Of a stretch of 64,000 nucleotides of DNA, positions 3,196 through 63,898 are shown piece after piece. The notes below the pieces were generated by a model, which worked only from the letters and a program-made list of their open reading frames with translations, searched no databases and was not told the origin of the DNA. This DNA is from Scenedesmus sp. PABB004. Lineage: Eukaryota. The DNA is taken from assembly GCA_014905635.1 (NCBI GenBank), contig JABVCE010000005.1, positions 744,001 to 808,000 of the forward strand. The letters are read 5' to 3'. Every line of letters starts with the position of its first letter. Positions within the stretch are counted from its first letter, which is position 1. A program made the translations under genes and the position numbers.

Positions 3196-6100
3196 TCACT
3201 CGCTGACTGCCGCCGCTTCCCCAGCGGCGGACTGCACCAGGTCCAGACAGCGCGCCGCCAGCGCGTCGTCGTGGGGCAGCCAGCTGCAGGCCAGCGCCCG
3301 CTCGCCGTCGCCGTCAGCGCCGACGCCGGGGCGTAGCTCGGGCGGCGCCGCAAACTCCACGGACCGCACCGCCGTACAGCTGCCGTTTGCGGTCACCTCT
3401 CTTGCAAGCTCCGCCGGCAGCCCTGCCCGCAGCGCCGCCGCCACGTGCGTGAGCGCTGCAGCGGCGGGCGGCTGCGCGCCGCCGCCCTGCGCCGCTGCCC
3501 AGCACGCCGGCGGCAGTCGCACGCGGCAGCGCAGCCGCACAACGTGCCGCCGCAGCCCGGCGGCGGCCGCCGCGTCGTCCGGCGGGAGCAGCTGCATGCG
3601 CTGCACCAGCGGCTGCGTCGCCGGCAGCTGCGGCGGCAGGTGGTGCACGACCAGCACGCCGTCCAGCACCACGCGCTGCGACTCCAGCGCAAGCTGCTGC
3701 GCCAGCTGGCACGACAGCGCCGCTGCGCGGCCCACCAGCGCGGTGGCGCGCGCGAGCTCCGCCTCGCCCAGCAGCAGCTCGTGCGGCGTCGCCGGGGCCC
3801 CTCCGGGCGCCAGCCGCGTGCCTTCAAGCTCCTGCTGCTGCTCCTGCTCCTGCTCCTGCTGCTGCTGCTGAGGGCTAGCAGCGGCGGCAGTGGCGTCCTG
3901 GCGCGCGTCGTGCGCGGCGGCCGCCAGCAACTCCAGCCAGGGCGCCAGCTGCGCCGCCCGCACAGCTGCCGTCGCGGGTGGCTGCTCCTGCTCCTCCTGC
4001 TGCTGTTGATCCTCCTGCCGCTGCTGCTCCTGCTCCGGCTCCTGCCCCTGCTGGGCTCGCGGCTGGCCGCCATTGCCGCCGGCGCCGCCGCGCCGTGCGA
4101 GCTCCGTGGCCGCCGCCACCAGCGCCGCCGCGTCGCCGCGCTCCAGCCACCCCGCCGCCGCGGCGCCGGCGCCGTCGGCGCGCAGGCGCTGCAGCCCTTC
4201 GGGCAGGCGGCGCAGCAGCGCTGCGGCGGTCGGCACGGGCACGCAGCCGGCGTGCGCGCTGACGCACACCTCCTCCCCGATCGCCGGCGTGTGGCAGGGC
4301 AGGCCGAGGCTACCAGCGATGCGGGCAGACATGAAGGCCATCTTGTCGGGCTCGCCGTGCACCAGCAGCACCGCCGCCGGCGCGACCTGCGCCACGAGCT
4401 GCAGGATGCCCTTGGCGTCGGCGTGCGCGCTCACGGTGGCGTAGTAGACCTGCGCCGCAGCGGCGCAGCGGCGCGGCGCTGGGGCGCGGCGCGGGCGCGG
4501 GCGCGGGCGCGGCGGCGCGCGGCGGCGCGCGGCGGCGCGCGGGCGTGCCCGGGGCCGCGCGGCGCGGCGGCGCGCCTTGCAGTTGACGTCCAGGGGCGCC
4601 TTGTCGACCACGAGGCCCTTGCGCTGCCCCAGCATGAGCTTGCGCCCGAGCGTGCCCGCGACCTGCCCCGCGGCGGCGGCGCCGGCGACGACGGGCGCTG
4701 TCAGCGGCGCGACGGGCGCGGCAGGCGCGGCGGCGGCGGCGGCGGAGCGCCTGCGGCGCTGCCGGGCGCAGCGCCGGCGCGCCTGGTAGCTGGGCAGCAG
4801 GACCAGGTTGTTGGCGCAGGGCGCCCAGGCCTTGAAGACCTCGAGGGAGGTGCCGCCCTGCAGCATGCCGGGCGTGGCAAACAGCACGCACGGCCCCTGT
4901 GCCCGCGGCGGGCGCGCAGCGCGCGGCGGCGTCAGCGGCGGTGCGCGCCGGCCCACCGCCCCCGATGCGCGCGGGCCGCACCGGCGCGTGCGTGAGCTCG
5001 GCGCTCCAGGGCAGCACGCGGCCGGGCGCGAGCGCGGCGGCGCGCGTGCCGGGCGGGCCCGCCTTGACCCGCTCGCTGGCCCAGTTGAGCAGCAGGCGGT
5101 AGTACTGGCTCGCGCGCGCGGCAAGGGGGCCGCTGAAGTAAATGGGCACCTGCGCGGCGGCGGCGCCCGCGCGGGTGGGCGGGCGGCGGCGCTTGGGCAG
5201 GCGCGCGGCGGCGGATGCGCGCTGCGGCGGGCGGCGGGGCGGCGCCGCACGTCGAGCTGGGTGCGCTCCCAGAACTCGCCGAGCAGCAGCAGCAGCTCCT
5301 GGGCGCGGCCGACAGCAAACACCGGCACCAGCACCTTGCCGCCGCCCGCCACGCAGCTGTGGACCTGCGGGCGCGGGCCACACGGCGCGCCGGACGCGGG
5401 TCGGCGCGCGGCGCGCCCGGCCACGCGGCGCGCGGCGGCGCGCGGGCCCCCGCAGCGCGCGGCGCACGCACCGCCGACAGCAGGCTGGCCTCGCGCGCCG
5501 CCTTGCTGTCGCGCACGCTCGTCGCATAGGTCGCCTCGCTGATCAGCAGGTCGGGCGCGAGCCGGCCCAGGCACGCGCCCGCGAGGTGGCGGTCGGGGAC
5601 GGTGTTGAAGTCGCCTGCCGCGGGCCGCGCCGCGCGGCGGCGGCGGCGCCCCGCGGCGTCGGCGCGGCGGCGGCGGCGAGGCGGTGCCGCAAGTGCCGCC
5701 TGGCGCGCCGCCGCGGCCGCGCCGCTGTGGCCGCGGCTGCGCCGCCGCCGCCGGCGCGCACCCGTGTACACGAGGCTCTCCCCGCCGGCGGTCACGCGCA
5801 GGATGGCGGCGCCGAGCACGTGGCCGGCGTTGTACGCGGTGACCTCGACGCCCTCGCACACCTGCGCGAGCGAGCGAGCGAGCGCCCGGGCGGACGCGAC
5901 GTCTTAGAGCCGCCGCGCGCCGCACGCGCACGCCGCGCCGCGCCGCCGCGCCTCCACGGTCTCCTGCAGGTCGATCGGCGTGACGCGCGCGAGCGCGGGC
6001 GCGACGTGCTGCCGGCCGAAGAGCGGCCCGCGGCCGGGGCGCTCCGCGAGCACGCGCGCATAGTCCTCCAGCATGAGCGGCGCCACCGCGGCGGTGGGGT

Positions 6101-6782
6101 AGGTCATGAAAATGGGCCCACGGTACCCCAGCACCTGCCGGGCGCGGCGGCGGGCGCGGCGGACGCGGACGCGGCGGCGAGGGTGTGTGGGGGGGGGGCG
6201 TGGGCGTGGGCGCGCAGGCGTGGGCGCGCGCGTGACGAGGCGGCGGTCACACAGCGCACGCAGCGCGGCGCGGCGCGGCGCAGCGCGGCGCGGGGCGCGG
6301 GGGCGCGGCGCGGCGCGGCGCGGCGCGGCGCGGCGCGCGCGCCTCTGTGAAGTAGGGCAGCGCGCCGACGTGGTCCAGGTGGAAGTGGCTCACCAGCAGC
6401 GCGTCGACCACGGCGGTCAGGTCGGTGCCGGGCGGGCCGAGCAGGCCAAAGTCGGGGAAGCTGTGCCGGGCGGGCGCGGCGGGCGGCGGTGGGCACGGCG
6501 CGCGCGTGGCCGTAGCGGCGCGTGGGGCGGAGCGGCGGCGCGTCGGCGCGCAGGGCGGCGGCGCAGGCGGTCGCGCGTGGTGCTGCGCACCGCCGCTCGT
6601 CCTGGTAGCCCAGGTGCATGCCGCAGTCGAACATGAGCGTGCGGCCGCCGATGCGCACCACCACGCAGCTCTTGCCGACGTCCTGCCCCGCGCCTGCCGC
6701 GCGGCGGGGCGCGCGCTCGGCGCTGCTGCCGCCTGAGGCGCGGCGCGCGCGGGGGCCGCTCACCCAGCACCAGCACACGCAT
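3196..6782 (-). CDS. INTS11: Integrator subunit 11 / CPSF73-II-like MBL beta-CASP endonuclease (11 exons)
   Basis: Spliced product [86 protein letters not shown] has all catalytic motifs. GAGQDVG and the GMH context favour INTS11 over CPSF73-I. Confidence 0.9.
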
Positions 6783-21211: not shown

Positions 21212-23566
21212 TGAAGGAGCGGTTGCGGCTGAAGCAGTCCTCCACGGGCCGCCCCGCCTCGACGTAGGCGCGCAGCGCCTCGGCGAGCACCGCGTCGGCG
21301 CTGCCGTACAGCGAGGTCACGCGCCCCGGCCGGCCCGCGCGCGCGGTGCGGCCCGCGCGGTGCAGGAACTCCATCGCGGTCGTCGCAAAGTCGGCCTGGA
21401 TGACGTGGCTCACCGCGGGCAGGTCGATGCCGCGCGACGCGGCGTCCGTGCTCACCATCACCACGCTGGACGCAGCGCCGCCGCCGGCGCCGGCGCCGGC
21501 GGCGGGCGCGGCCATGGCCGCCAGCGCGGCGGCGCGCGCCTCGGGCGCCACGGACTTGTGGTACACCACGCACGGCACGCCCGCGGCCTGCAGCATCCCC
21601 GACACCTGGGGCCGGCGGCGCGGCGGCGTGGCGGCTCAGGCGGCGCGGCGCGGCGGGGTGGCAATGGCGGGCGCCGCCATCGCCCGCGCGGGCGCGCGCC
21701 GGCGCGCCGCGCACCCGGTCGGCGGCGGCCACGTCGCGCACAAACACCAGCACGCGCGCGGCGCCGGCGGCATAGTCCGGGTCGTCCCTGATCGCGGCCA
21801 CGAGCGCCGCGTCGGCGCCGCCCTCGGGCACGCGCAGCCAGGCGTGCTGCACGTGCGGCTTGACGCGGTGCAGCATGTCGCCCGCGACCCACGTCGCGCC
21901 CTTGAAGCGCCGCTGCAGCTCGACGCCGACGTCGGCCTTGGTCAGCGTGGGCAGCGTGGCCGCGACAAAGAGGTACTGGCGCTTGAAGTAGGGCCCGAAC
22001 GGCCCGCCGCGCCCGCTGCTGCCGGCGCCCGCGCCGCTGGCGCGGCGCTGCTGCAGCTGCTCCGCGCCGGGCGCCGCCGCGCCCTCCGCGCCCTCCGCGC
22101 CCTCCGCGCCCTCGCCCTCGCCGCCGCCGCCGCCGGGCGCCGGCGGCGCGCCGGGGGCCCGGAAGCCCGCCGCGAGCATCGCGGGCGCGCCGCCGTCCCA
22201 GCAGGCCTGCTTCACGTGCCGCGGCAGCCGCGAGAGCTGCTCCTCGCTCAGCCCCAGCTCCGCCGCGACCTGCGCCTCGATCTGGCGCCGCTCGCCGGCC
22301 TTGAACGCCTGCGGCGCCGCCCGCGGCGCGCACGCGCGGCGTCGGCCGGCGCGCCCGCCGGCGCGCCAGCGGCGCCGCGCGGCCGCGCGCCGCGCGCTGT
22401 GCGCTGCGCGCGCACGTCGAGCAGGCGCGTGAGGTCTTTGACGTAGCCGCCCTGGCTCAGCAGGTCTGCCTCGTCGACCACCACCACCGCGGCGCGCGCC
22501 GACACGCCCTCCGCGCTCCACTGCGGCCCGTACGCGGCGCCGCGGTCGTTGAAGAGCGTGACGAGCGCGCCGGGCGTGGTGACGACGACATCGGGCGGCT
22601 CAAACGGCGGCGGGTGCGCGCCCGACACCTGGCACGCGCGCAGCAGCGGCGCGGCGCCGCCGGGGCCCGGCAGGCTCGCCACGAGGCGCACGACCTGCTG
22701 GCACAGCGCCGCGTTGGGGCAGAGCACGAGCGCGAGCGCGCGGCCGGCGCCCGGCCGCCGGCTGCGCGGCGGGGCGGCGGCGGCGGGCGCGGGCGTCGGC
22801 GGACGCGGTCGCGGGCGCCCGCCGGCGCGCGCGCTGCTCGCGCCGGCGTCCAAGCGCGCTCACCCGGCGCCACTGGCACCGTCAGATGCATCACCGCCGC
22901 TGCCGGGCGCGGGCGCGGCCGCGGCGCGGCGCAGCAGCGCCGTCGCGACGGGCGCGACGTATGCGAGCGTCTTGCCGCTGCCCGTCTCCGCCGCCAGCAC
23001 GACGTCCTTGCCCGCCAGGATGGGGGGCAGCGCCAGCTCCTGCAGGCGCGCGCGCGCGGGGGCGCGGGTCGGCCGCCGCCGCGGGACGCGCGCGCGGCAG
23101 GGACGCAGGCGCCGGCGCGCAGCTGGCCACGCGCCTGCACGCGCGAGGGACGAGCAAAGCCCGCGGCGCGCAGCGCCTCCGCGACCGCCGGCGCGACGCC
23201 GAGCTCCTCGAACGTCGCCGCCGCCTCGGCGTAAAACGCGCCCTCCGCGTCGCCGTCGGCCGCCGGCGCCGGCGCCGGCGCGGAGCCCGCCGCCGCGGAG
23301 CCTGCTGCCGCCGCGGACGCCGCCGCCGCCGCCGCCGCGCGGCCGCCGCCGCGCGCTGCGCCCGGCGGCGCCCGGCGGGACGCTGCTGCCAGCGCGCCGG
23401 CGGAAGAGGCGGCCGCGCTGTGCGGCCGCGCCGGCGCCGCGGCCGGCGGCTGGCCGCCCGCCGCTGCCGCCGCGCCGGCCGCGTGCGCCGGTGCCAGGCC
23501 GCCGCGCAGGCTGCGCAGGCCGCGCAGGCCCGCCTGCCGCGCCGCCCGCCAGGCCAGGCAGCGCAT
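21153..23566 (-). CDS. RH22: Organelle-targeted DEAD-box RNA helicase, RH22-like (5 exons)
   Basis: Q motif FEELGV..PSRVQ; AETGSGKT; LCPNAALC; TTPG; VDEAD; AATLP; STDAASRGID; HRAGRTARAG; C-terminal FSRNRSFSKKVKRYG; N-terminal transit peptide. Confidence 0.85.
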
Positions 23567-23929: not shown

Positions 23930-24817
23930 ATGGCACAGGCTGCGCCGCGCCGGCGGCCCGCGAGCGGCGGCGGGCCGCTGCGCGCCGAGGCGTCCGCGCC
24001 GGCGGCGGTGGGGCTGCAGCGGGCCGGCGCCGGCGGCGCAGAGGCCAGCCTGGTGCGGGCCCTGGTGGCCAGCAGCGGGCAGGGCGCGCCAGCGCTGGTG
24101 GCGGGCGCCGGCGCTGGCGCCACCGCTGGCGGCGCGGTGTGGCGCACGCGCGGCGTCCGCAGCCGCGCCGCCGAGAGCTATGCCATCCTGCAGCTCAAGG
24201 CGCCGAGCACCCGCGGCGTCGCCGTCCAGGTGCGCGGGAACTTCGCGCTCTCTCTCCGCGCGGTCGCGCGCGCGCCGGCCGCGCGCGCGCAACCGCCGCG
24301 CAACCGGCCGCCGCGCAACCGCCGCGCGGCGCCCGCGGCGCGCCCGCAGCTCGCCTTTCTGAGCGCGGCCGCGACGCCGGCGGAGGTGCGCCTGCTGCAC
24401 GCGCCCGGCCCGAGCGCCGCGTTCAGGCCGCTGCTCGGCGCGGCACTGCGCATCGGCGCCGTCGACGCGCGGCGCCAGCAGCAGCACACGCTCGCGGTCG
24501 GGTCGGGCGTGGCGGTGCAGCGCTACGTGAAGCTGGAGATGGCCGGCCAGGCCCTGCCGGCCGCCGCAACGGGTGAGGCGCCGGGGCGGCGCAGCCGGGG
24601 CAGCCCCTCCGCGCGCGCCGACCGCCGCCGCCGCCGCCGCCGCGGGCAGGCGGCCTGCACGCCGTGGTGGCGCTGGACGTGGTGCAGCCGTCGGCGGCGG
24701 CCGCGGCCTCGGCGGCCGCCGCGACGCGGCTGCCGGTGCCTGCGCTGTCGGCGGAGAGCTCGGCGCCCGCGGCGCTGGGCGCGGAGCCCTCGGCGGACGT
24801 GCTGATGCGCAGCCCCT

Positions 24818-24851
<34 letters not shown>

Positions 24852-26791
24852 AGCGGGCGCCGGCAGCGCCGAGCGCGACCCCGACGCCGTCAGCAGCAGG
24901 GCGCCAGGCCGCTTCGACAGCTGGCTGAGCCAGACGCGCTCGTCCCTGCTGCAGAAGGACGCAGCAGGTGGCGCGGCGCGCGGGCGGTCGCAGGCGCCGC
25001 TGGCCGAGCAGCAGCAGCAGCAGGCGCAGCAGCAGCAGGCGCAGCAGCCGCCCTGCGTGGAGCTGCGTGCGCGGCCGCCGGCGTGCAGCCCGCAGCACGC
25101 TGCGGCGGCGGTGCTGGCGGCCGCGGGCAGGCCGTCCACGCTGCTCAGCATGCTGCGGCACTCGCACGACACGGACGCAGACGACGGCAGCGACGGCAGC
25201 AGCAGCGTGTGCAGCAGCCTGGACAGCTTGCTGGCGATGTCGGCGCTGGGGGCCGGCGCCGCCGGCGGCGCCGGCGAGCACAGCAGAGTCGCCGCCGCGC
25301 AGCAGGCACCCCAGCACAGCGCGCAGCAGGGCGAGTCGGCGGCGGTGCTGATGGGCAGCGTCACCGTGGGCGGCCAGGCCAGCAGCCTCGGCAGCTGCGG
25401 CGGTGGCGGCGGCGGCCTCGCGGCGGCAGGCACCACGGACCGGCCCGGCAGCAGCTGCTCTGTGCGCTGGCCGGGGCCGGCGGGGCCGGGCAGCCCCGGC
25501 GGCTCGGACGCGTCCCGCTGCGCCTCGCCAGAGCGCGAGGGGGCGGGCGCCGCGCACGGGCGCGCGTCGCAGTACGCGACGCTGGGCGCGGCCGGCGACC
25601 GGCGCGCGCTGCAGGAGCCGGAGCTGGTGGACAGTCAGAGCTGCCTGCCGCCTGGCAGCAGGCAGGCAGCCGCAGTGGCGCGGCAGGCGGCCGGCGAGCA
25701 CGCTGCCACCGCCCTGCTGGCGGACCGCCGGGTCCAGTCCTGCCCGACGATGCAGCCGCTGATCGGCAGCGGCGGCAGCGCGGGGGACGCCGTGCCGCTG
25801 CAGCAGGGCGCCGCGACGGGCCGTCCGTCGCGGCTGGCCGGCGTGCCGCTGGGCGGCAGCCCCGGCGCGCCAGGCGTGCTGCTGCGCGGCCCGGGCGCCG
25901 GGCGGCTGGCGGTGACGCTGTCGCCCGAGATTCTGCGCCAGGGGCAGCTGGTCAAGCAGAGCTGCCCGCTGCTCGCCTTCCCGCGGTACACCTCGCACTC
26001 TCCCCTCAAGGACAGCTGGCAGGGCGCTGGCGGCGGCGAGGATGGTCTCGCCGCGGCCGCCGCCGCCGACGAGGGCGACCACAGCCCGGACGGCGAGCCG
26101 GCGGCGGCTCAGCCGCCGCCGCCAGGCAGCGTGGCGGGGCGGAGCAGGCTGGCGACGGCGTGCGGCAGGGGCTCGCCCGACCCCCGGTGCGAGCTCTTTC
26201 TCCAGGACGAGCCGCCGGAGCAGCCGGGCGCACGGGAGCAGCAGGACCAGCCGGCAGCGCCCGCCGCACAGCCACCGCCGCCGGCGCCTGCAGCGGCTCC
26301 GCAGCGGGCCAGCCCCGCTGCCAACGCCGTCCTGCAGGCGCTGCTCTTCAGCGGCAGCTGCGACCTGAGCGCCCTGGACGAGCGCCAGGGCGTGCAGGAC
26401 TCTGCGGCGTCGGCGAGCCCAGCGGCCGCGGTCTCAGGCAAGGCGGCGCCAGCGTCGCCCGGCGGCGGGCGAGCAGCGCCAGCGCCCAGCGCGCAGCCCC
26501 AGCCGGCCGACTGCCAGCGCCCTGGCGCGCAGCTGATGCGCGTGGAGCAGCTGCAGCTGGTCGGCGCGCAGCGCCCTGACCTGCCGCAGCACGTGCAGGA
26601 CCTGCAGCCCCTGGCGAGCGGGTCGCTCGGGCTGGCGCGGCAGGACGAGCCTCGCCGTGCCGCCCGCAGCGTGCAGGCGCAGCGCGCCAGCGGGGTGGGC
26701 GCCCAGCCGAGTGGCGTCAGGAGCGCGCCGGCCTCGCCGCGGCGCGCATCTGGCGGCGGCAGGGCGGGCCTCAGCCTGCGGCCCGCGTCGA

Positions 26792-26833
<42 letters not shown>

Positions 26834-37802: not shown

Positions 37803-38884
37803 TCAGCGCACGCTCGCCCCCATGCTGCGCAGCCGCGCGCGCATCTGCTCCGGGCTGCCCGTGAACACGACGCGCCCGTCCTCCATGTACGATGCCGCGT
37901 CGGCGTATGCGAGCTCCTCAAACCTGCGGCGGCGGCGCACGGCGCGCTGTGTGCTCGGCTCGGGCGGGCGGCGCCGGGCGCCGCGGGGCCGCTGGGCGGC
38001 GCCGCGGCAGCACCAGCCCGCCGCGCCGCCGCCGCGGGCGCGCCTGTGCGTCACCCAGACGGCCGTGACGTCGCGCCGCGCGTGCGTGACGGCGCGCACG
38101 GCCTCGAGCACGCCAAACTGGTCCTCAACGTCCAGAAACGTGGTCAGCTCGTCCAGCAGCAGCAGCTTGGGGTCCTCCGCCAGCGCGCCTGCGAGGCGCG
38201 GCGCGGCGCGGCGTGGCTGCGACGGGCGGCGAGCGCCGCGCGCCGGAGCGAGCGGCGCCGGCGGACGCGCGCGCGCGCCCGCGCGCGCGGCGCACCCGCG
38301 ATGGCGACGCGCTGGCGCTGCCCGCCCGAGAGCGTGTGCGTGGCGCGGTGCATGAAGGGCTTCATGTTGACCAGCTCCAGCGCCGTCTCCACCGCGGCCG
38401 CGACCTGCGACTCAGGCAGCACGTACCTGCGGCGGCGGGCGCGCACGGGCGTGGAGCGCCCGGCACGGCGCGGCGAGTGTGCGCGCGCGTGTGGCCGCCA
38501 CGGCGCGGCACCGAGCGCGGCCCGCCCAAGCCGCCGCCGCCGCCGCCGCCGCCGCGCCTGCCGAGGCCGAACGCCACGTCCGCGGCGACCGTGGGCATGA
38601 CGACCTGGTGGTCGGGGTTTTGGAACACAAACCCCGACGGCTCATCCGCCGCGACGGCGCCGCCGTCGGGCCGCAGCAGGCCGCCGAGGACGCGCAGCAG
38701 CGTGGACTTGCCGCAGCCGTTGGGCCCGAGCAGCATGTGCAGGCTGCCGCGCTGCACGCGGAGGTCGACCGAGCGCAGGATCTGGCGCTTGGCGCCCTCC
38801 GGGCCCAGCGACAGCTGCAGGCCGCGGATGTCGATGCTGAACCCGGGCGGGGCGGCGCCGCCGCTGCCGTTGCCGCCCGGGCCG

Positions 38885-38917
<33 letters not shown>

Positions 38918-39018
38918 GCGCGCCGCCGGCACGGCGCGCAGAGCTTCTGCTGCTGCCCCGGCCGGCCGCAGGCCCAGGGGGCGGCGGGGGAGCCGAGGGC
39001 GGGCGCCCGCGCGCGCAT
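37803..39018 (-). CDS. ABCI10: Plastid ABC/ECF-type ATPase, ABCI10/NAP13-like (4 exons)
   Basis: Transit peptide; Walker [11 protein letters not shown]-loop [23 protein letters not shown]; signature LSGGQRQR; Walker [14 protein letters not shown]-loop VWVTHR. Confidence 0.88.
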
Positions 39019-43914: not shown

Positions 43915-46900
43915 TGCGCCAGGCGCCGCACGAGCCGGTACCTCGGCGTGGGCAGCAGCAACCGCAAGAACCAGTGGCAGGCGCGCATCCTGTACCACGG
44001 CAAGGTCACGCACCTGGGCTACTACCGGACCGAGGAGGAGGCGGCGCGCGTGTACGACAAGGTCTCCATCTCCCTGCACGGCGCGGGCGCGCAGACCAAC
44101 TTCCCCATCGACCAGGTGCGGCGCCGGGGCGGGCGGGCGGGCGGGGGCGGCAGCGCGGCGGCGCAGGGCAGGGCTCCTGGGCTCCTGGCCCCTCCTGCAG
44201 GCCTCCTGGGCTCTGGCCCCTCCTGCGGGCCTCCTGGGCCTGCACGCCAGGGGGGCCGCGCGGGGCCGCGCACGGCTGGGCCGCTGCCGGCGCCGCCCGC
44301 CCCTGAGCCCTCCCGCCGCGCCGCGCCGCGCCGCGCCGCGCCGCGCCGCGCCGCGCAGTACAAGCACGAGGTGGGCAGCCTGCAGCAGAAGCTGAGCGGG
44401 CTGACGCGCGAGGAGCTGCAGCGCGCGCTCGGCGTGAAGCCGATGGACAAGAGCAGCACCTTCCGGGGCGTGAGCAAGAAGAAGGGCCGCTGGGAGGCCA
44501 AGGTCATGCTCAACCGCAAGTGGGCCTACAGGTGCGGCGGCGGCGCGCACTGCGCGGGCGGCACGCGCTCGGCGTGGCTCGCGCGCGGGCGGCGTGCTGA
44601 GCGCGTGCCGAGTGCGGCGTGCTGAGCGCGTGCCGAGTGCGGCGTGCTGAGCGCGGCGCGCGTGCTGAGCGCGGCGCGCGCCGTACGTGCGCGCAGGGAG
44701 ATTTTTGACGCCGAGGTCGACGCGGCGCGCGCGTACGACGCGGCGGTGTGGCGCCTCAAGCCGCGCGAGGCGCGGAACTACACCAACTTCAAGGACACCT
44801 GCCCGCCCGACGTCGCGGCGGTGCTCGCGGCGGCCGACAAGGCGCGCGCGCGCGCGGGCCGCGGCGTGCGCGTGGGCCGCCACGCGCGGGGCCGCCGCGC
44901 ACGCGGCGGGGTGCTGATGCCGCGCGCCATGCGCCGCGCGCCGCCGGCGCAGGGCGGCGCGCTCGCGATGCACCCGACGGGCCTGCCGCTCACGGCGGCG
45001 CCGCTCATCGAGGCGGGGCTGCTCTTTGACGACGAGGGCCAGAGCATCCGCGGCCCCAACGGCATCACGCGCACCGTGAGCATCGGTGACCTCATCTCCC
45101 TCGGCGACTCGGCCGGCCAGTCGGCGAGCGAGGAGCGCTCGACCGGCGGCGGCGGCAGCGGCAGCGCCGGCGGCCGCCCCGCGCACAGCGGCGGCGGCGC
45201 GTCGGGCGGCGCCGGCGGCGCGCCGCCGGGCGGCACCGCGGCGGCGGTCAAGCGCGGCGGCGGCGGCGGCGGCGCCGCGGCGGGCGGGCTCGTCAAGTCT
45301 GCGAGCTACTCTGCACTGTCGGGGCTGGACGGCGCGGTGACGAGCAGCCTCATCGCGTCGCCGCCCGACCCGGCGGCCGCCGCGGCGGCGCCCGTGCCCG
45401 CGAGCAGCCTCGCGGCGCTCAAGGGCCGCGGCGGCGGCCTGCACGGCGACCTGGCGTCGCACCACGCGATGGGCGGCGGCGGGCACCACGCGATGCACGC
45501 CGGCGACGCCCACGCCGCGGCGCTGGGCCCGGGGCACCACCACCTCGGCGCCGGCGGCGGCGCGGGCGGGCACTACGGCGTCGGCGGGCTCGGCGGCGGC
45601 GGGCTCGGTGGCGGCATGGCCCGCGTGCACTCGGTGCCGTCCCTGGTCAGCTACGGCGGCGGGCTCGCCGACGTGGGCTCGCCCTCGCTGCCGCCGGCGG
45701 GCGGCGCCGGCGGCGGCCGGCCGGGCGCGCTCGGCGGGCAGCAGCCGTATGGCGGCCAGGGCTACGGCGGCTACGGCGCGCCGGCGGGGCTGCCGCACGG
45801 CGGCATGAAGCTCGAGGGCACCTACTGGACCACGGAGCTGCCACACCAGGTGCGGGGGCGCCGGCGGCAGCGCGGCCGCGGCGCGCACAGCCGCGCGCCC
45901 GCGCGCAGGGAGGAAGGGAGGGGGCCCACGCCCGCCGCCCGCCGCCCGCCGCCCGCCGCGCAGATGGACCACGCTGCCGCACACCACGCCGCGGCGGCGG
46001 CGCACCAGGCGGCGCACCAGGCGCACCAGGCGCAGCAGCACGGCCTGCGCATGAGCCGCTCGTGCGGCAATCTGGCCTTCATGGCCAGCGGCGGCGGCAT
46101 GGGCGGCGGCGGCATGGGCGGCGGCGGCATGGGCGGCAGCCACAGCCCAGCGGGGCTGGGCCCGCTGCCGCCCCAGCAGCAGCCGCTGCAGCACCATCAC
46201 CAGCAGCCGCAGCAGCAGGCGATGAGCAGCCCTGGCATCGGCACGTCCCCGCTCGGCACGTTCAGCAGGTGCGCGCGTCGCGCCGCCGCGCCCGCCGCGC
46301 TGTCGCCGCCCGGCGGCGCGCCTGCCGCGCTGGGGCCGCCCGGCGCGCGCGCCGCGCCGCATCACCGCCGCGCCGCGCCGCCGCGCCGCACCGCGCCGCG
46401 CGCGCGCAGCGGCTCGGCCGACTTTGGCAACGGCGCGCCGAGCAAGCCGCTGATGGTGCGCGTGGGCAGCGAGCAGCACCTGATCGCGCCCGCGCCCGTG
46501 CCGGGCGGCGGGCTCAAGGGAATGCCGCGCATCGGCAGCGAGAGCCAGCTGAGCAGCATGGTCCCCGTCTCGCCCTCGGCCGCGTTCCTGGGGCCCGAGC
46601 TCGGCCACGGCGGCGTGCACGGCCTGCCCGGCGGGCTCGGCGGCCCGCCGGCGCAGCAGCACGGCCTGCACGCCGGCTACGGCCACCTCCACGCGCCGGG
46701 GCACCACGTCGCCGCGCTGCAGCAGCAGCAGCAGGCGCAGGCGCAGCACTACCAGCAGCTCGGCTACGGCGGCGGCGGCGGCCTGCCGCAGCACGCGCCC
46801 GGCGGCGGGCTGCCGAGCGGCGCGGGCGGCGGCGCGCCGCGGCCGCGTCGCGAGGGCGGCGGCATGCCACGCGCGCACAGCTACGCGGCGCTTCAGAGCA

Positions 46901-48343: not shown

Positions 48344-49792
48344 ATGTCGGACTGGACCCGGGCCCTGCGCGGTGGGGGCGGCCCGTCCGCGGGCACCACG
48401 CCCCGCGCCAAGTCGTACAGCAACAACCGCTACGGCGCGCGCACGGCGGACGAGGACGACGCGGACAGCTCCGCCGGGGGGACCATGAAGCGCACGCCGC
48501 GCCAGGCGGGCCTGTATGACCGCCCCTGGAAGGAGACGGTGCGCGCGCGGGGGCGGCGCGGAGGGGAGGGGCGCGCGCACGGCGCGCGGCGCGCGGCGCC
48601 AACCGCCGCGCAACCGCCGCGCAACCGCGCAGGGCGGCGGCGTGCCCGCGGCCGGGCGCGGCACGCCGCGCAGCCGGGCGTTCGCGCGGCCGCCGGTGCC
48701 GCGCCAGAACAGCACGGTCGACGACTGCGACGCCGCGAGCGCGGCCGAGTCGGACGACGTCTCGGTCGTGACCGAGGACGACTTCCGCGACCCCGAGGGC
48801 GAGAGCGTGCAGGTCTTCGTGCGCGTGCGGCCCACCAACACCACCGAGGCGGAAGAAGGCGCGCAGCGCGGCGCGGCGGCGCACAGCGCGGTGGCGGCGG
48901 ACAGCGCGGCTCGCAGGACCGGGCGCGCGCGGCGACGCGGTGCCGCCGACGCGCCGCCCCGCCCCGCGCGCGCAGGCGACCAGTACCACTGCACGCGCAT
49001 CTACGGCGACCGCACGGTCTCGGTGGAGCTGCGGCACCGGCCGGAGCCGTACCAGTTCAAGTTTGACTGCGTCCTGCCAGAGGCCACGACGCAGCTGGAG
49101 ATCTTTGAGCGTGCGCGCCGCCGCGCCGCGTGCCGCGCCGCGCGCGCCGCGTTCGCCGGCCGCAGCCAGCTGCACAGCAGCCACGCCGACGCGGCTGCCG
49201 CCGGGCGCCGCCGCAGGCGCGGGCAAGCCGATCGTGGACAACTGCATGGCCGGCTACAACTCGACCATCTTTGCCTACGGCCAGACGGGCGCGGGCAAGA
49301 CGTACACGATGCAGGGCCCGCTCGCGGGCGCGCTGGAGGCCGACGGCGGCGACGAGGCGCGCTCGGCCGCGCCGCGGCGGCAGCCTGCGGCGCGCGCCGC
49401 GTGAGCGCCGCCTGAGCGCCGCCTGGGCGCGTCCGCCGCGCCCGTCGTGCGCGCCCGCGCAGAGGGGCCTCGCGCCGCGCGTGTTTGAGTACCTCTTCTC
49501 TGAGATTGACAAGGCGCAGGACGAGAAGGACCACGGCGCGCTCACGTTCTGCTGCCGCTGCAGCGTGCTGGAGATCTACAACGAGGTCATCACTGACCTG
49601 CTCAACCCCGGCGCGACCAACCTGCAGATCCGGGAGGACATCAAGCGCGGCTGCTACGTGGAGGACCTGGGCGAGCACCTCATCCAAAACGGTGCGCGGC
49701 GCGCGCGCGCGCCGGCCCCGCCGCGCCCGGCAGGCGGCGCTGCCGGGGCGCGCCCCGACGCGGCGGCCGGGTCGCCCACTCACCGCCGCCGC

Positions 49793-49824
<32 letters not shown>

Positions 49825-52800
49825 GGTGCCGCCGCCGCAGTGTCGGACGCGATGCGGCTCATGCGCACGGGCGCGGAGAACCGGCACGTCGGCGAGACGC
49901 GGCTGAACCGCGAGAGCAGCCGCAGCCACAGCGTGTTCACGTGCACGCTCGAGCGGCACAGCAAGAGCCAGGAGACGGGCGTGACCAACGTGCTGTTCAG
50001 CCGGCTCAACCTCATCGACCTCGCGGGTGCGCCGCGCCTGCGGCCCCGGGGCTGCGAGCAGCGCCAGAGTGCGCGCCGGCGCCCGCGCGCGCGCCGCGCC
50101 GACCGCCGACCGCCCGCCCGCGCCCCCGCCGCGCCGCGCCCGCGCCCGCGCCGCAGGCAGCGAGCGCATCCACGGCGGCGAGCACGGCGGCAGCCAGGCG
50201 ACGGGCAAGCACTTCCGCGAGGCCTGCCACATCAACAAGTCGCTGACCACGCTCGGGCGCGTGATCATGGAGCTCGTGGAGGCGCAACGCAAGCCAGGCG
50301 GCGGCAAGCCCGGCGGCGGCGGCGGCGGCGCCGCGGGCGCGCGCGGCCGGCACGTGCCGTACCGCGACAGCCGGCTGACCTTCCTGCTGCAGGACAGCCT
50401 CGGCGGCAACGCCAAGACGCTCATGATCGCCAACATCAGCCCCAGCAGCGTGTCGGCGGCGGAGACGCTGTCGACGCTGCAGTTTATGTCGCGCGCCAAG
50501 TGCATCCGCAACCGCGCGACGATCAACCTCGACGCGCGCGGCGACGTGGTGCTGCTGCAGCGCGAGATTGTGCGCCTCAACACGGAGCTCGACAACCTGC
50601 GCAAGGGCTACACCGAGCCCGCGGTGCAGGAGGCCAAGGAGCTGCGCCTGCGGCTCGACGAGTGAGGCGCCGCGCGCGGGCGCGCGCGCTGCCCGCTGCG
50701 CTGTGCCGCGCAGCGCTGCGCGCGACGCGGCCGGCGGCGCCGCCGCGCAGGATGTGCGCGGCCAAGGGCCAGATGGAGGCGCTCATGCTCGGCCTGGACA
50801 AGGAGAACCAAAACCTCAAGGCCGAGCGCCGCCGGCTGGACCACAAGATGTCGCAGATCCAGAAGTGAGGCTGAGCGGGCGCCGCGGGGGCGCGGGCAGC
50901 GCAGGCAGCGCGGGCAGCTCGCAGGGGCCGCGCGGCGCGGCGCCGAGCCGGGACGGCGCCGCGGCGGCCCGCCGCTTCGCAGGGGCGCGGGGCAGCTGGA
51001 CCAGGCCATCTTCAGCCTCACCGCCAAGGTGATGCACCACGAGTCGCTCGCCGCGGCGGCGACGGAGAAGAGCCTGCGCGCGGCAAAGGCGGAGCACGAG
51101 CTGCAGGTGGCCGAGCTGCACGCGGCGCAGGCGGAGCTCAGCGAGGAGCTGGCCCGGGTGCGCGGCTGCGGCGGCGGGCGGCGCAGGCGGCGGGCCGGCG
51201 CCGCGCCGCAGCTGCGGTTGGTTGTGGCGCTGGCGGGGACCCCTGGCGCTCACCGCAGCCTGGCCGCCCCCTGGCGCGCGCGGCGCAGGAGCGCACGGGC
51301 CGGCAGGAGGCCGAAGCGCGCCTGCAGGTCGAGCTGCGCAACGGCGTGGCGGCCGCGGCCGAGCAGGTGCACGCGATGCAGGCGGAGCTGCAGAACGTGC
51401 ACGCCACGGTGGAGGGGCTGACGGCTGAGAACCAGCAGCTGCACGGCCAGCTCGCCGAGGCGTCCAGCAGGGAGGCCGCGCGCGCGGCGGCGGCCGAGGC
51501 GCGGCTCGCCGAGGCGGCGGCCGAGAGCGCCGCGCTGCGCCAGCAGCTGGACGAGGCGGCGCGCGCCGGCGCCGCGCTGCGCGAGCAGCTCGACGCCGCG
51601 GCCGCTGACAGCGACGGCCTGCGCCGGCAGCTGACCGAGGCGGCCGAGGCGCGCGACGAGGCAGTCGAGGCGCTGGCGGTGTCCAAGGCCGTGAACGCGG
51701 GCCTGGACGAGCAGGTCAGGGAGCTCATGGCGCAGGCGGCGCAGGTGCGGGGGGGGGGGCGCGGGGCGCGGCCGACACGGGCGAGCTGCACGCGGCGCGG
51801 GCGGCGCCGGCGCAGTGGCAGCCCCCGTGCGCCCACGACCCCCCCCTGACCGCCCGGCCGTGCGCCCACGCAGGCGGAGGCCGAGCTGCAGGGCCGCGAC
51901 AAGCAGCTGGCCAGCCGCGCGCGCGAGCTGGAGGACGCGCAGCAGCAGCTGGGCGCCATGCAGGGCGCGCTGGCGGCGGCGCAGCAGCAGCTGGCAGCGC
52001 AGCAGGAGGAGGCCGCCGCGCGGGCCAGCAGCGACGAGAGCGAGCGTTCGGCGCTGCAGCAGCAGCTGGCAGAGCGGGACGAGCAGCTGCAGGACGTGCG
52101 GGCGCAGCTGCAGCGGGCGGGCGAGGTCAACGAGCAGGCGCAGCAGCGCATCGACGAGCTGGAGGGCCGCGCCAGCAGCGCCAGCGGCACCGTCGAGGAG
52201 CAGCAGCAGCGCCTGGGCGAGCTCGGCGGGCGCGTGCAGCAGCTGGAGGCGGAGCTGGCGTCGCAGGGCGCCGCGGCGGAGGCGGCGCGCGGGCAGGTGG
52301 CCGCGCTGGAGGAGGCGCTGGCGGAGCTCAACGCCGCGCTCAAGGAGCGCTCGCAGGCGCTCGAGGCGACGGAGGAGCGCGCGCGGCACCTCGCGCAGCA
52401 GCTGGACGCCACCGGCACCGCGGCGGCGGCCAAGGCGGAGCAGCTGGCGCACGACCTCGCGGCGGCGCGCGAGAGCAGCAAGAGCCGGCAGGAGGAGCTG
52501 ATGAAGCAGGTCACCGAGGTGCACCTCGCGCTCTCCGCGGCGCAGCAGGAGCAGGAGCGGCTGCAGGACGCGCTCGACGCCGCGCGCAGCGACAGCGGGC
52601 TGCTGACGGCGAAGCTCGCCGACGCGGAGGGCCAGGTCGACAAGCTGCGGGTGCGCGGGCTGCTGCAGGCGGCGGCGCGCCGTGGCGACGCGCGGCTTGG
52701 GAGCGCGGCTGAGCCCGCCCGCCCGCCCGCCGCGCCGCAGGGCCAGGCCAGCGCCAAGAGCCTTGACTGCGACCTGCTGAAGAAGAAGCTCGCCGCCGCC

Positions 52801-54829
52801 GACGCGACCGCGGCGGGGCTGCGCGGCGAGCTGGAGGAGCGCGGCGCGGAGCTGGAGGAGCTGCGCGCCAGCCTGCGCGCGGCGGAGGCAGCGGCGCACG
52901 ACGAGGTGGAGAAGGGCGCGGAGCAGGTGCGGCGGCGGCGGGGCCGGCGGCGCGTGCGGGGCGCGGCGGGCCTGTGCCGGTCGAGCCTGGCCGAGGCAGG
53001 GCAAGCGCGGCGAGCCAGGCCGAGGGCTGAGGCGCTCCTGCTGACCGGGCCGCCCCTGCCGCCTCTGCCGCCTCTGCCGCCGCCCACAGCTCAACACGCT
53101 GCAGCGCGAGCTGCTCGACGCGCAGGAGCTGCTCACCTCCAAGGGCTTTGAGGCCGTCCAGATGCAGCGCCGGCTGGAGGAGCTCGCGCACCGCCTGAGC
53201 GACCGCAACGCCGCGCTTGAGGCGCACAAGGAGGTGGGCGGCCGCTGCGCTGCGTTGCTCGCGGCGGGCGGGCGGGCGGCGGGCGGCGGCCGCGCCCCAG
53301 CAGCTGCGGCGGTCGGCTGCGTTGACCCGCGCGGGGGGGGGGATCCGCTGCCCCGCCCCGCACCGCGCAGGAGGTGAAGGGCCTCAAGGCCAGCCTGGCC
53401 AAGATGGAGGGCCTCGGCCGCCAGCGCGACGCGCTCCTCGCGGAGCGCAGCGCGCTCGCAGACCAGCTGCAGGTGCGGCACGCGGGCGCGCGGCGGCGGC
53501 TGGCGCCGCCGGGGCTGGCCAGCCGTGCGGCCGCGCCGCGCTCACAACCCGCCCGCCGCTCCGCGCCGCGCCGCGCCGCTCCTTGCCGCGCGCGCAGGCG
53601 GACAGCGAGGTGCTGCACGCGCGGCTGCACCGGCTGCAGGAGGAGCTCGCGGTCAAGGAGGGCCAGCTGCGCGGCAAGCTCAACGCGCACGAGCTGCAGC
53701 TCAAGGAGCAGATCGTCTACAACGTGCGCCGCCCGCGTGCCGCGGGGCGGAGCAGGGGGGGGGGGGGGCACGCTGCGTGCCGCGGCTGCCGGCGCAGGAT
53801 GTGGCGCGTGCGGCGCGCTGACGCCGCCCCCTGCGTGCCCGCCCCGCCCCGCGCCCCCCTCCGCCAGGCGCGCAACCGCCAGGCCATGAATGAGATCCGC
53901 AAGGTCATCAACTGGGCCCAGCAGGCGCCCACGCTCGGCGTCGCCGGCGGCAGCGCGGCGAGCACGCCGACCGGCGGCGCGGCGAGCCCCGCCGTCGGCG
54001 CGCGCTCGCCCACGCGCGCGGCGGCGGCGGCGGCGGCGGCGGCGCGCTCGCGCTCGCGCTGGCGGAGGAGCTGCCGCTGCCGGCGGACGAGGGCTTTGAT
54101 GAGGCCTTCGGCCTGCGCCCGCCGCCCAGCAGCGGCGGTGGCGGCGGCCTCGCCGCGCCGCACTACGCCGACGGCCTGCCGCTGGCGCTGGAGGGCGTCG
54201 GGCTGGAGCTGCCGGGCGGCCGGGCGGCGCGGCGCCGCGGCAGCGCGGGCGGCGGGAGCGAGGCCGGCGGCGCGCACGGCGCCGGCACCCCCGGCAAGCC
54301 GCGCGTGCAGGAGCGCGCGCCCGGCGCGGACGCGCGCGCCTCTGACGGCGGCGACGTCGGCGGCGACGTCTCCAGGTGCGGCGCGCGGCGGACGCGCCTG
54401 TCTGATGCGGCGCGCCGCGGATGCGCCCCGCCCGGCATGGCGTCGCACAGCCGCCGCCGTGACACGCCGCGCCCGCGCCGCGTGCCGCGCCGCAGGCAGC
54501 TGCAGGGGCCGGAGCGGGCGAGCAGCCCGCTGCGCGCGTCGGCCGAGGACGGCCGCGCGAGCCCCACGCAGCACGCGCGCAGCAGCGCGCGCAGCAGCCG
54601 CCGCGACACTGGCCGCCGCGGCGGCGTGCGCATGGCGAGCGACTCGCACAGCTTTGGCGCCGCGCTCAAGGCGGCGCGCCGCGGCAGCGCGGGCGGCTCC
54701 AACGAGGGCAGCGTGGGCCGGCTCTCGGCGTCGGGCGACTGGCCCCGGGCGGCGGCGACGGGCCGAAGCTGCCGGCCGCGATCGTGGGCGGCGACCTCGC
54801 GTGCGAGCCTGACGCCGCGTGAGCCGTGA
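48344..54829 (+). CDS. Kinesin-12 (KIF15/PAKRP-like) motor with a long coiled coil (~17 exons; apparent frameshift near 54015)
   Basis: [92 protein letters not shown] heptads at 50550-53920. Confidence 0.9.
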
Positions 54830-58902: not shown

Positions 58903-60569
58903 TCACAGCTCGAGCACGTAGCGCGCGACGAGGAAGACGAGCAGCCAGAAGCCGCCCGCGATGACGAGCTTGCTCGCCTGATCGCCGGCCGAGCTGATCC
59001 TGTCCTGCAGGCTGCTCACGAGCGCGCGGCCGGTCGCGACTGCGCCGGCGCCGCCGAGCAGCGCGACCGCCACGAGCAGCAGCGCCTTGGTCTTGTCGTC
59101 GATCGGCGCCTGCGCGGCGCGGCGGGCAGCATGGCGGCGGCGGCGGCGGCGGCGGCGCGTGAGCGGCGCGCGCGGGCCGGGCCGTGTGCGCGCGGGCGTC
59201 CACCACGCGCCGACCCGCCCGCGCTGCGCTGCGGTGCGCGGCGCGGGCTTGGCGCGGGCTTGGCGCGGGCTTGGCGCGGGCTTGGCGCGGGCGCGGGCGC
59301 GGCGCGGGCTTGGCGCGGGCTTGGCGCGGGCTTGGCGCGGGCTTGGCGCGGGCGCCCTCACGTTGACGATCTCCGCCTTGACCGCGTACTCGCCGAGGTC
59401 TGTGACCTCGTTCAGCAGCAGGCCGCCGCCCGCGCCCGCGGCGACGAGCAGGCCCGCGACCGCGACAGGGCTCGTCTGCTGCGCGCCGGGCGCGCGCGGG
59501 TCGCGCAGCGTGACCTCGCCGGTCGCGACAAACTGCTTCAGCCCCTTCTCGCCGCCCGCAAAGCCGCCCGTCGCGCCGAGCAGGGGGCCGAGGTCGTCCT
59601 TGGCCGGGTACTTGGCGGGGTCGTCCAGGATGACGCGCCCCGGCGCGCCCGCCTTGCGCTTGTCGAGCTCGCTGCGCGCGGCGCGCGGGCGCGGGGCGCG
59701 GGCGCGGTGAGGCGCGGCGGCGGCGCAGCGCGGCGCGGCGGGCGCGGCGGGCGCGGCGCGGCGCTCACTCCTTGCCGTAGCCGAGATAGATGGGCGCCTT
59801 GCCGTCCTTGGCCGCCGGCGGGCTGGCCGGGCGCGCCGGCGCCGGCGCCGCCGCCGCCGCGGGCGCGGCGCCGCCCTTGGCGCCCTTGGCGGCCGCCTTC
59901 TCGCGCAGCACCTGCTCGCGCAGCTGCCACAGCCCCGCCTCGCCGCCCGCCCAGCCGCCGGTCGCGCCGGGCAGGAAGCCGACGTCCTCCTTGCCGGGAT
60001 ACTTGGTCGGGTCGTCCACGATCACGCGGCCCTTGCGCCCCGCGCGCGGCGCAAAGTCGCCCTTCTCAAAGCCGATGTAGATCTCGGACCCGCCCGCCGG
60101 GCCGGCGGCCGGCGCCGCGGCCGCCGCGGGCGCCTCCGCGACGCTCGTGCTCGCCTGCGCAGCGGGCCGGCCGCGAGCGGCGGCGGCGGCCGGGGGCGGC
60201 GGCGGGGCGGCGGCGGGGCGGCGGCGCGTGAGCGCTGTGGACTGAGCTTCGTCGGGAGCCGCCGGGATGCGGGCCGGCGACTGAGCGCGGCAGGCTGCGG
60301 GCGCCAGCGGCCGGCCTGCCCCGCGCCAGCGCTGCCAGCTGCGCCCCAATTGCCGCGCTTGCGGCGCCAAGGACGTAGCGCGCCGTCCGCTAAGCGACGC
60401 GGCCGCTGCCGGGCGGGCGCGCTGGCTGGGCGGCGCGCGCGGCGCGCGAGCGCTCCGGCCGCATCCGAGCTCGCACCTGGGCACGCACGCGCAGCGCCGG
60501 CGCGACGCGGCGACTGAAACCGCTCGCGTGGGTCCCGGCGGCCAACCTGGCCTGCTGCTGCAGCTGCAT
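58903..60569 (-). CDS. ANR1: Thylakoid protein ANR1/TEF7-like, with two ANR domains and transmembrane helices (4 exons)
   Basis: Transit peptide MQLQQQARLAAG..LRVRAQ; two repeats IY(I/L)G..GRVIxDDPxKYPxK(E/D)D..GATGG(W/F)AGGExGL, resembling the plant NdhS N-terminal TGGFPGGEKGL motif; C-terminal hydrophobic helices. Confidence 0.75.
59240..59352. repeat. Intronic minisatellite (GGCGCGGGCTT)n, about 8 units in two blocks
   Basis: Read directly in ANR1 intron 3. Confidence 0.9.
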
Positions 60570-60886: not shown

Positions 60887-61164
60887 CCTTCACCGCCGCC
60901 GCCGTGCGCCCCGCGCGCGGCCTGCGCGCCGCGGCGCGCCGCGGCGCCGTGGCGACCCGCGCCAAGGTGCGGGCCGCGCTGCCGCCCGTGGCGACGCGCG
61001 CCGGCGGCGCGGGGGCGGCGCACTGAGCGCGCCGTTGCGTTCCGCAGCTCGGCGACTCCCTGGCCGAGTTCCTGGTCGAGGCGACGCCGGCGCAGTCGCG
61101 ACCGGCCGCGCGCTCGTGAGCACCTTGACCTTGAGCAGCCTACAGGACCGCATCAGCTCCGCCG
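60887..61164 (+). pseudogene. Chimeric gene fragment: copy of SBPase 61763-61964 fused to an inverted copy of ANR1 58986-59050
   Basis: 202-bp direct copy including an intron, with 2 mismatches, followed by the reverse complement of part of the ANR1 last exon with a 15-nt insertion. Confidence 0.9.
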
Positions 61165-61502: not shown

Positions 61503-63898
61503 ATGGCGACCGCTCTCGCCAGCCGCACCGCGCAGGCCGGCCTGGTGGCCAGGGCGTCGGGCGCCAAGGTGCGCAGCGCCCGGCCGACGCCCCCATTGGC
61601 GCCGCGCCGCGGGCAGGGCCTCGCGCGGGCCGTCCTCTCCGCGCCCTGCCCAGCGCCGCATTGCGCCGCGCCCGCAGGGCGTCGCGCGCCCGGTCACCGG
61701 CCGCGCGCCCGTCAAGGTGGTCGCCTGCGCCCGCAGCAGCAGCTTCGCGGCCGGCAATGGCGCCTTCACCGCCGCCGCCGTGCGGCCCGCGCGCGGCCTG
61801 CGCGCCGCGGCGCGCCGCGGCGCCGTGGCGACCCGCGCCAAGGTGCGGGCCGCGCTGCCGCCCGTGGCGACGCGCGCCGGCGGCGCGGGGGCGGCGCACT
61901 GAGCGCGCCGTCGCGTTCCGCAGCTCGGCGACTCCCTGGCCGAGTTCCTGGTCGAGGCGACGCCCGACACCAAGCTTCGCCAGCTGCTGATGAGCATGTC
62001 CGAGGCCCTCCGCACCATCGCCTTCAAGGTGCGCGCCGCGCGGGCATGGCGGGAGGGCGGCCGGGGAGGCTGGCAGCCCGGGGGACCGGCGGCAGCGGCC
62101 AATGCAGCGGGCGCGGGCACGGCGGCCGCGCGGCGCGGGCGGTGATCAGCGCGGCCGGGCCCCGGCCGCGGGCCGGGCCCCGCCCGCGGCCGGGCCCCGC
62201 GCGAGCGTGGGCGGCTGTGGTGCTGCGGCCCGCCAGCCGCGCGGCGGCGGCCGCCCCGCACGCGCTGCCCGCGCTGCGCGCCCGCTCGCTGACGCCCCGC
62301 CGCCGCTCCGCTGCGCCCGCAGGTGCGCACCGCGTCCTGCGCGGGCACCGCATGCGTCAACAGCTTCGGCGACGAGCAGCTCGCCGTGGACATGCTGGCG
62401 GACAAGCTGCTGTTCGAGGCGCTGCGCTTCTCGGTGCGGCGCGCGCGCGCGGGCCGACATCGCGCCGGGCGCGCCGCTCCCTCCTCTCTCCTCCCCCTCT
62501 CCCCCGCCGCTCCCTCTCTCTCCCTCCCCCCGCCGCCCGCGCACCCGCGCCGACGCGTCGCCGCGCGCGCCGCCCTGTCGCCCGCGCGCGCGCAGCACGT
62601 GTGCAAGTACGCGTGCTCCGAGGAGGTGCCCGAGCCGGTCGACGTCGGCGGCGAGGGCTTCTGCGTCGCGTTCGACCCGCTCGACGGCAGCAGCATCGTC
62701 GACACCAACTTTGCGGTCGGCACCATCTTTGGCGTGTGGCCGGGCGAGAAGCTGAAGGACATCACCGGCCGCCAGCAGGCCGCCGCGGGCATGGGCATCT
62801 ACGGCCCCCGCACCATCTTCTGCCTCGCCGTCGCGGGCTACCCCGGCTGCCACGAGTTCCTGCTCATGGACGACGGCAAGGTGCGCCGGCGGCCGGGCGG
62901 GCCGTTTGTCCGCGGGCGGGCGGCTGTGGGGGGCGGCCGTGGGGGCTGCGCCCGCGGCGGGCTGCGCCGGCGGCGGCGGCGGCGCGGGCTGACCGCGCCG
63001 CCCTCCCTCCCCCGCGCCCCGCGCGCGCAGTGGGTGCACGTCAAGGAGACGACCGAGATTGGCGAGGGCAAGCTCTTTGCGCCGGGCAACCTGCGCGCGA
63101 CGTTTGACAACCCCGCGTACGAGCGCCTCATTAGCCACTACCTGGGCGAGAAGTACACGCTCAGGCGCGCTGCCAGTTGCAGCACCGCGTGCCGGCGCAC
63201 ACGCACGCACGCGCGCGCGGCCGCCGCCCTGCCGCGCGCCGCGCGGCGCGCGCCGCTCGCGGGCCGTCTGCGCCGAGCGTCTGCGTGCCAGCCGCGGCCG
63301 CCTCGCTCCCGCGCCGCCGCTCACCCGCGCCCGCACACAACACACTCCACCCCCGCGCCGCAGGTACACGGGCGGCATGGTGCCGGACGTGTTCCAGATC
63401 ATCGTCAAGGAGAAGGGTGTGTTCACCAACGTGACCTCGCCCTCGACCAAGGCCAAGCTGCGCATCCTCTTTGAGGTCGCGCCGCTCGCGCTCATGGTCG
63501 AGCAGGCCGGCGGCGCGAGCAGCTGCGACGGGCTCTGCGTCTCCGCGCTCGACGTGCCCATCCTCGGCTACGACCAGCGCACCGAGATCTGCTTCGGCAG
63601 CGTCGGCGAGGTGAAGCGCTTCGAGGAGTACCTCTACGGTGAGCCGGCGGCACAGCGGGGCGGGCGCGCGGGCGCGCGGAACGCACGGGACCGCGCGGGC
63701 CCGGCGGCGCGCGCGGCGCGGTCGGCAGGGGCCTGGGCCGGCGGCGGAGGGCAGGCAGGCGCCGCGCGCGCGGCGGAGGGCGTGCGCGCTGACCGCCCCG
63801 CGCCCCTCCCCCGCGCCTCTCGCCTCCCCCGCGCGTGTGCAGGCAACTCCCCCCGCTTCAGCGTGGCCAACGAGCTGGAGGCCAACCCCCGCCAGTGA
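61503..63898 (+). CDS. SBP1: Sedoheptulose-1,7-bisphosphatase, chloroplast (8 exons)
   Basis: [86 protein letters not shown]; the redox CxxxxC is present. Confidence 0.97.

Follow-up and report, generated by a model that had tools for sequence, protein, structure and literature searches.

GC-AG introns, in which the 5' splice site (the donor) carries GC in the place of GT, make up on average 1.2% of plant introns, with a correlation between splice-site GC and genome GC of r ~0.40. In GC-rich lower organisms the fractions are much higher, according to the part of the 2011 discussion in PMC3167603 available to us, where a share "approaching 40%" is cited for the pelagophytes and linked to high genome GC, and the accessible text of a preprint (bioRxiv 10.1101/2024.10.30.620910) gives predicted shares of 14-17% in Aureococcus and of about 14% in Pelagomonas, put down by its authors to GC content. 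Here, we analyzed a stretch of 64,000 nucleotides (nt) from the green alga Scenedesmus sp. PABB004 (assembly GCA_014905635.1, contig JABVCE010000005.1, positions 744,001 to 808,000; the window hereafter, with coordinates counted from its first letter), in which 10 of 70 curated introns (14%, or about one in seven) use a GC donor. The window has a G+C content of 78.8%, and the genome is listed at 39.8 Mb, 78.5% GC and 7,092 genes (Table 1 in the accessible portion of PMC12571836). We consider it likely that the GC donors belong to ordinary U2-type GC-AG spliceosomal introns, unusually frequent here, derived from GT-AG introns under GC pressure, with the compensated sites surviving. A preliminary description of this DNA had taken a GC-AG share of around 1% as usual for eukaryotes, which holds as an average but not for GC-rich algae, already known to exceed it.

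The pelagophytes Aureococcus anophagefferens and Pelagomonas calceolata resemble the window in combining a large share of GC donors with high GC, as far as the available parts of these sources go, and 10 of 70 falls within the same range. However, they are stramenopiles, whereas the window comes from a chlorophycean green alga; their genomes carry 0.1-0.9 introns per gene in the accessible portion of the preprint, whereas the window is intron-dense; and that same portion holds no statement on an obligatory exonic AG, unlike what we found for the GC donors here. Green algae with 64-67% GC also show raised GC-AG shares, as in the window: dividing the counts in the supplements of PMC6310983, we obtained 5.7% for Chlorella sorokiniana (7067 of 124,435 introns), 7.0% for Micractinium conductrix (8046 of 114,347) and 5.6% for Micromonas pusilla (495 of 8837), all of these being annotation counts that depend on the pipeline allowing GC donors (Monoraphidium shows 19). 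The fraction in the window, at 78.8% GC, is about twice that of these three species. The compensated GC 5' sites of animals and plants (Burset 2000; Thanaraj & Clark 2001; Kralovicova 2011) are likewise U2-type in the passages at hand, with the mismatch to U1 at +2 offset elsewhere and the remaining signal following the consensus more closely (PMC2490688, PMC3167603, both in part), and one such passage agrees with the enrichment of GT after the acceptor reported below. Those sites, however, amount to about 1% of introns with the consensus AG|GCAAGT, in contrast to about 14% and AG|GCGCG here. The phenomenon follows a pattern known from other GC-rich algae, in a more extreme form. We searched the literature for GC-AG introns in green algae and met with no description of this feature for Scenedesmus sp. 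PABB004, and the words "intron" and "splice" are absent from the accessible part of PMC12571836, in which this genome is listed.

The preliminary description had named 11 GC donors, each following an exonic AG and continuing as GCGCG, and AG|GCGCG was indeed read at 11 of 11 coordinates on the strand given. Nevertheless, the heptamer AGGCGCG has 35 copies on the plus strand and 32 on the minus strand of the window (67 in total); it is common by chance at 78.8% GC, and therefore the motif alone proves nothing and independent evidence is needed. We used a protein-to-genome spliced aligner of our own in three modes (GT donors only, GT and GC, or any of the 16 donor dinucleotides), with orthologues taken from protein databases. 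Ten of the 11 candidates were supported, nine by spliced alignment with orthologues from other algae and the one in SBPase by residue continuity in a solved structure; the orthologue alignments pass without gaps across nine junctions, and nearly so across the kinesin junction at 49357. Restricting the aligner to GT donors cost 109-272 score units and broke conserved motifs, and an in-frame GT..AG pair giving an unchanged protein was found at none of the 11 sites. All 10 supported introns have GC at +1/+2 together with a 3' AG, and 5 of them have a length that is not a multiple of three, so that splicing is required to keep the reading frame. To judge from the gapless alignments and from the restoration of frame in these five, the segments would be removed from the mRNA. 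Several of the GC junctions had been described as forced by conserved motifs, and those proposed in SBPase, INTS11, RH22 and ABCI10 are all among the supported ones. Minor (U12-type) introns have the donor motif /RTATCCTT; as all 11 donors read GCGCG, this class was rejected.

Four of the GC-AG introns lie in INTS11 on the minus strand, at 6135..6342 (208 nt, not a multiple of three, junction YFTE|VLGY), 5862..5951 (90 nt, QETVE|VCEG), 4663..4782 (120 nt, in frame, PSYQ|VAGT) and 4450..4575 (126 nt, VNCK|VYYA). When the Tetradesmus obliquus orthologue (P0005) was aligned with all 16 donor dinucleotides allowed, the conserved part of the gene resolved into 10 introns, of which six have GT donors (6763, 6590, 5761, 5471, 5250 and 4981), four have GC donors (6342, 5951, 4782 and 4575) and none has any other. 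In the GT-and-GC mode, the same four GC donors came out with two distant homologues; in the any-donor mode, P0010 swapped 5951 for a CG at 5977, and P0013 swapped the GT at 5250 for a CG at 5247. The donor at 6342 was recovered with three of three homologues even when any donor was permitted, the intron at 4663..4782 was spliced out with three of three, and the GT-only models for this gene lost 184-272 score units.

An exon query from INTS11 retrieved the NCBI protein "CPSF73-II [Scenedesmus sp. PABB004]" (P0001) at 99% identity, and the exons of this protein map to the window at 100%. The public model already splices GC-AG introns at 6342, 5951 and 4575, where, among solutions with an AG acceptor, GC..AG alone yields P0001, so that the introns at 5862..5951 and 4450..4575 have the support of both the orthologue alignment and the public protein. 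By contrast, P0001 retains the in-frame intron of 120 nt at 4663-4782 (minus strand) and thereby gains 40 residues that are absent in six of six homologues; the GC donor has probably misled the annotation here. A metagenome scan with the INTS11 alignment yielded 80 loci, all with at most 52% identity and mostly intron-poor, and among them no close relative within the Scenedesmaceae. In metagenome relatives, the open reading frames begin a little way before VYYATVS, with short extensions of unrelated sequence, as expected if an intron lies at the 4575 junction.

In the ABCI10-like ABC ATPase gene (37803-39018, minus strand), three of three orthologues gave a GC donor at 38557, a GT donor at 38295 and a GC donor at 38043. 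The first of these introns, 38427..38557 (131 nt, junction FGLGR|YVLPE), was gapless with all three orthologues in every mode that allows GC, and the last, 37924..38043 (120 nt, VTHR|FEEL), was likewise gapless with all three; the GT-only penalty was 113 units, and a fourth homologue (P0033), the C-terminus of which is divergent, gave another alignment at the last junction. For the kinesin-12-like gene (48344-54598, plus strand), two orthologues place eight introns within the motor region, those at 48859 and 49357 with GC donors, and the GT-only models lost 109-112 units and destroyed the YTMQGP motif. The intron at 48859..48975 (117 nt, TEAEE|GDQYHC) was gapless against both orthologues in all GC-allowing modes. 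The intron at 49357..49462 (106 nt, GGDE|RGLAPR) is less tightly pinned: it was the best solution for both orthologues with GT and GC allowed, it falls in a variable loop that exceeds that of the orthologues by two residues, and one any-donor run preferred a GG at 49348. Its only in-frame GT alternative, GTGAGC at 49401 (44 nt downstream), would add 14 amino acids. Among the matches listed, PABB004's own models for ABCI10 and for the kinesin were absent. Separately, the orthologues of these two genes in Scenedesmus sp. NREL 46B-D3, a relative with about 57% GC like Tetradesmus obliquus, are found on one contig of 228,778 bases, which suggests that their linkage is conserved.

The GC-AG intron of the RH22-like DEAD-box helicase gene (23040..23134, minus strand, 95 nt, not a multiple of three) sits at the junction PSRVQ|ELAL, between the conserved PSRVQ and the GSGKT P-loop, and the spliced product PSRVQ|ELALPPILAGKDVV aligns to the closest homologue with no gap. 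Given the choice of GT and GC, the aligner picked the donor at 23134 with all five homologues that span the junction; with any donor allowed, two of the five kept it, and the other three took a CG at 23131, three bases away. In SBPase (63165..63363, plus strand, 199 nt, KYTLR|YTGG), the flanking exons are contiguous on chain 7b2o_A, the exon that ends in KYTLR corresponding to residues 182-228 and the one that starts with YTGG to residues 229-321, with no gap between them, whereas the GT alternatives to 63165 alter 4 to 40 amino acids. Upstream lies a direct repeat of 202 nt (60887-61088 and 61763-61964, 99% identical, 876 nt apart), through which the 5' part of SBPase, one of its exons included, occurs twice. 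The eleventh candidate, at 44842..44952 in an AP2-domain gene (plus strand, 111 nt, in frame), is without orthologue support. An in-frame consensus donor (ggc|GTGCGC at 44866, 24 nt downstream) uses the same acceptor and adds eight amino acids (ARARAGRG), and a crude coding model gives the GC donor an advantage of about 4 nats, too small to decide the matter.

The curated set behind our frequency estimate consists of 30 homology-pinned introns and 40 per-gene ab initio calls checked by eye; it excludes the AP2 candidate and the unmodelled region between 24 and 37 kb, and gene G1 contributes only one intron to it. The 10 GC donors among these 70 introns are consistent with the 11 of about 86 (13%) obtained earlier by hand-splicing. 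Six ab initio GC calls (1011, 23475, 43602, 53982, 58055 and 59836) were dropped as unsupported, none of them standing after AG, and the GT call at 3522 was dropped as well, together with the introns at 13132 and 14879 of the Cys-rich gene, the acceptors of which were not settled. A permissive ab initio gene finder ran the entire window together into giant genes containing hundreds of false introns, a strict one merged or missed introns, and the per-gene version served as a guide for curation only. The curated introns are short (median 120-130 nt) and have 87-89% G+C. As for the excluded region, positions 24000-37000 offer, on both strands and over about 13 kb, only low-complexity coding-like segments rich in Q, A and L, with several copies of AGGCGCG.

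What most clearly sets the GC donors apart from the GT donors is located in the exons. An exonic AG (positions -2 and -1) precedes 10 of 10 GC donors but only 18 of 60 GT donors (Fisher p=3.3e-5), and within the homology-pinned subset the figures are 10 of 10 and 3 of 20 (p=9.5e-6), so the reliance on exonic AG that had been suggested earlier withstands the comparison. In addition, the next exon begins with GT after 7 of the 10 GC introns, as opposed to 9 of the 60 GT introns (p=7.6e-4). The intronic part of the motif, by contrast, does not discriminate: GCG at +3 to +5 is present in all 10 GC introns and in 46 of the 60 GT introns (p=0.19). GTGCG is thus the commonest GT donor, as previously noted, and GCGCG, which had been regarded as a special feature, simply mirrors this general consensus. 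The acceptor is CAG in all 70 curated introns. Within the five well-modelled genes, 10 of the 17 sense-strand copies of AGGCGCG serve as donors, no copy is found within an intron, and if GGCGCG is counted with any preceding base, donors account for 10 of 103 copies. An introner-like family was considered and rejected, as the first 15 of 1084 intron-versus-intron matches are short GC-rich stretches common to GT and GC introns, and no intron family specific to GC donors was seen among these 15.

On our favoured interpretation, the strong G/C bias would repeatedly have turned the T at intron position +2 into C, the direction of this change being inferred, and such changes would last only where the intron is otherwise contacted optimally by the splicing machinery, namely where -2A and -1G pair with U1 and where a good acceptor and a good downstream exon are at hand; the survivors would then look like AG|GCGCG...CAG|GT. 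The GC donors share G-Y-G-C-G with the GT donors and sit at exon junctions demanded by orthologous proteins. The compensation expected of U2-type GC-AG introns is observed, exonic AG and downstream-exon GT both being enriched, and so is, at the scale of the window, the elevated GC-AG share expected of a GC-rich genome. GC pressure, already proposed as a possible driver in the preliminary description, is plausible in view of the composition of the window and of the listed genome, and published work ties high GC-AG shares to GC-rich genomes. The same exonic enrichment could also be read as a shifted splice-site code, in which the exon bases (-2A, -1G and the GT of the next exon) are primary and are read by U5, Prp8 or an altered U1, so that C could stand in for U at +2 and AG|GC would form a second regular donor class; we regard this as unlikely. 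Were it to hold across the genome, the GC-AG share of Scenedesmus sp. PABB004 may be one of the highest on record for the green lineage. A related thought, of which the preliminary description already offered a version, is that the spliceosome has been re-tuned, with variant U1 or U6 small nuclear RNA (snRNA), or associated proteins, accepting C at +2, so that the GC donors form a co-equal class rather than weak sites. The share of 14%, far above the 1.2% plant average, would suit such a change, as would the departure of the general consensus GTGCG from GTAAG at +3 and +4. Yet, if C paired as well as U, no extra exonic pairing would be needed, while AG is found at 10 of 10 GC donors compared with 30% of GT donors; such a strict need for AG would be predicted for a canonical U1 facing a mismatch at +2, and it argues against a re-tuned U1. 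Moreover, similar fractions in other GC-rich algae are put down to GC content by the authors cited above, in the available parts of their texts, and we hold re-tuning to be quite unlikely. An Rfam search of the 64-kb window matched no RNA family and no snRNA.

Selection might alternatively have kept the GC donors as weak sites for regulated splicing or intron retention, with autoregulation of INTS11 as an example. In favour of this, INTS11 has 4 GC donors among 10 (nominal p=0.03), in-frame introns are 5 of 10 among the GC class and 20 of 60 among the GT class, and animal GC donors have been tied to alternative splicing in the accessible part of PMC2490688. However, neither the heterogeneity among genes (permutation p=0.20) nor the in-frame excess (p=0.48) is significant, and the GC introns are spread over unrelated housekeeping and plastid-function genes. 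The uneven distribution among genes noted in the preliminary description therefore has no statistical backing beyond the nominal value for INTS11, the feedback regulation through INTS11 envisaged there finds no support, and we consider a regulatory origin very unlikely. An artefact of gene modelling, with GC donors arising from the hand-splicing of stop-poor, GC-rich DNA and with genuine splicing at GT sites close by or the in-frame segments simply being part of the protein, has some points in its favour: AGGCGCG occurs 67 times in the window, 5 of the 10 GC introns are in frame, stop-free and readable through, a consensus GT stands 24 nt past AP2 44842 and a GTGAGC 44 nt past kinesin 49357, and spurious introns appear in non-conserved regions once GC is allowed. 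All the same, nine junctions are gapless and that at 49357 nearly so, YTMQGP and other conserved motifs are lost in the GT-only models, reading through would add 30-42 residues found in no homologue, and the other five GC introns are out of frame; we judge this explanation highly improbable. Finally, extreme GC can trouble sequencing, and the C at +2 might be an assembly or polishing error for T, but random T-to-C errors at GT donors, 30% of which follow AG, would not yield ten sites that all share the exonic AG, and there is hardly any chance that such errors account for the pattern.

Several points must be set against our own interpretation of compensated, U2-type GC-AG introns. The junctions are drawn from protein homology and one public annotation, and the direction of change, from GT to GC, is a proposed one. 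The fraction of 14% comes from one 64-kb window, and 40 of the 70 introns are our own ab initio calls. With a canonical U1, the GC donors would pair at 5.6 positions on average and the GT donors at 6.25, which makes the compensation partial. Furthermore, once GC was allowed, many spurious GC "introns" arose in poorly conserved stretches of RH22, so that GC calls without conserved flanks are unreliable, and the AP2 candidate at 44842 may be a GT intron.

Apart from the introns, one gene of the window (59344-60043, minus strand) encodes the conserved segment GRVI[VL]DDP.KYP.K.D.G.L.GATGG.AGGE twice, ahead of a hydrophobic tail.

These results mean that gene prediction in extremely GC-rich genomes must admit GC donors, or else false insertions will enter conserved proteins, as exemplified by the 40-residue retained intron of the public INTS11 model, and genes may be missed altogether. 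An annotation rule that accepts a GC donor only after an exonic AG, and with a CAG acceptor, could help. The window also adds a further and more extreme data point to the relation of GC-AG frequency to the GC content of genomes, and illustrates cleanly, in a natural setting, how weak splice sites are compensated.

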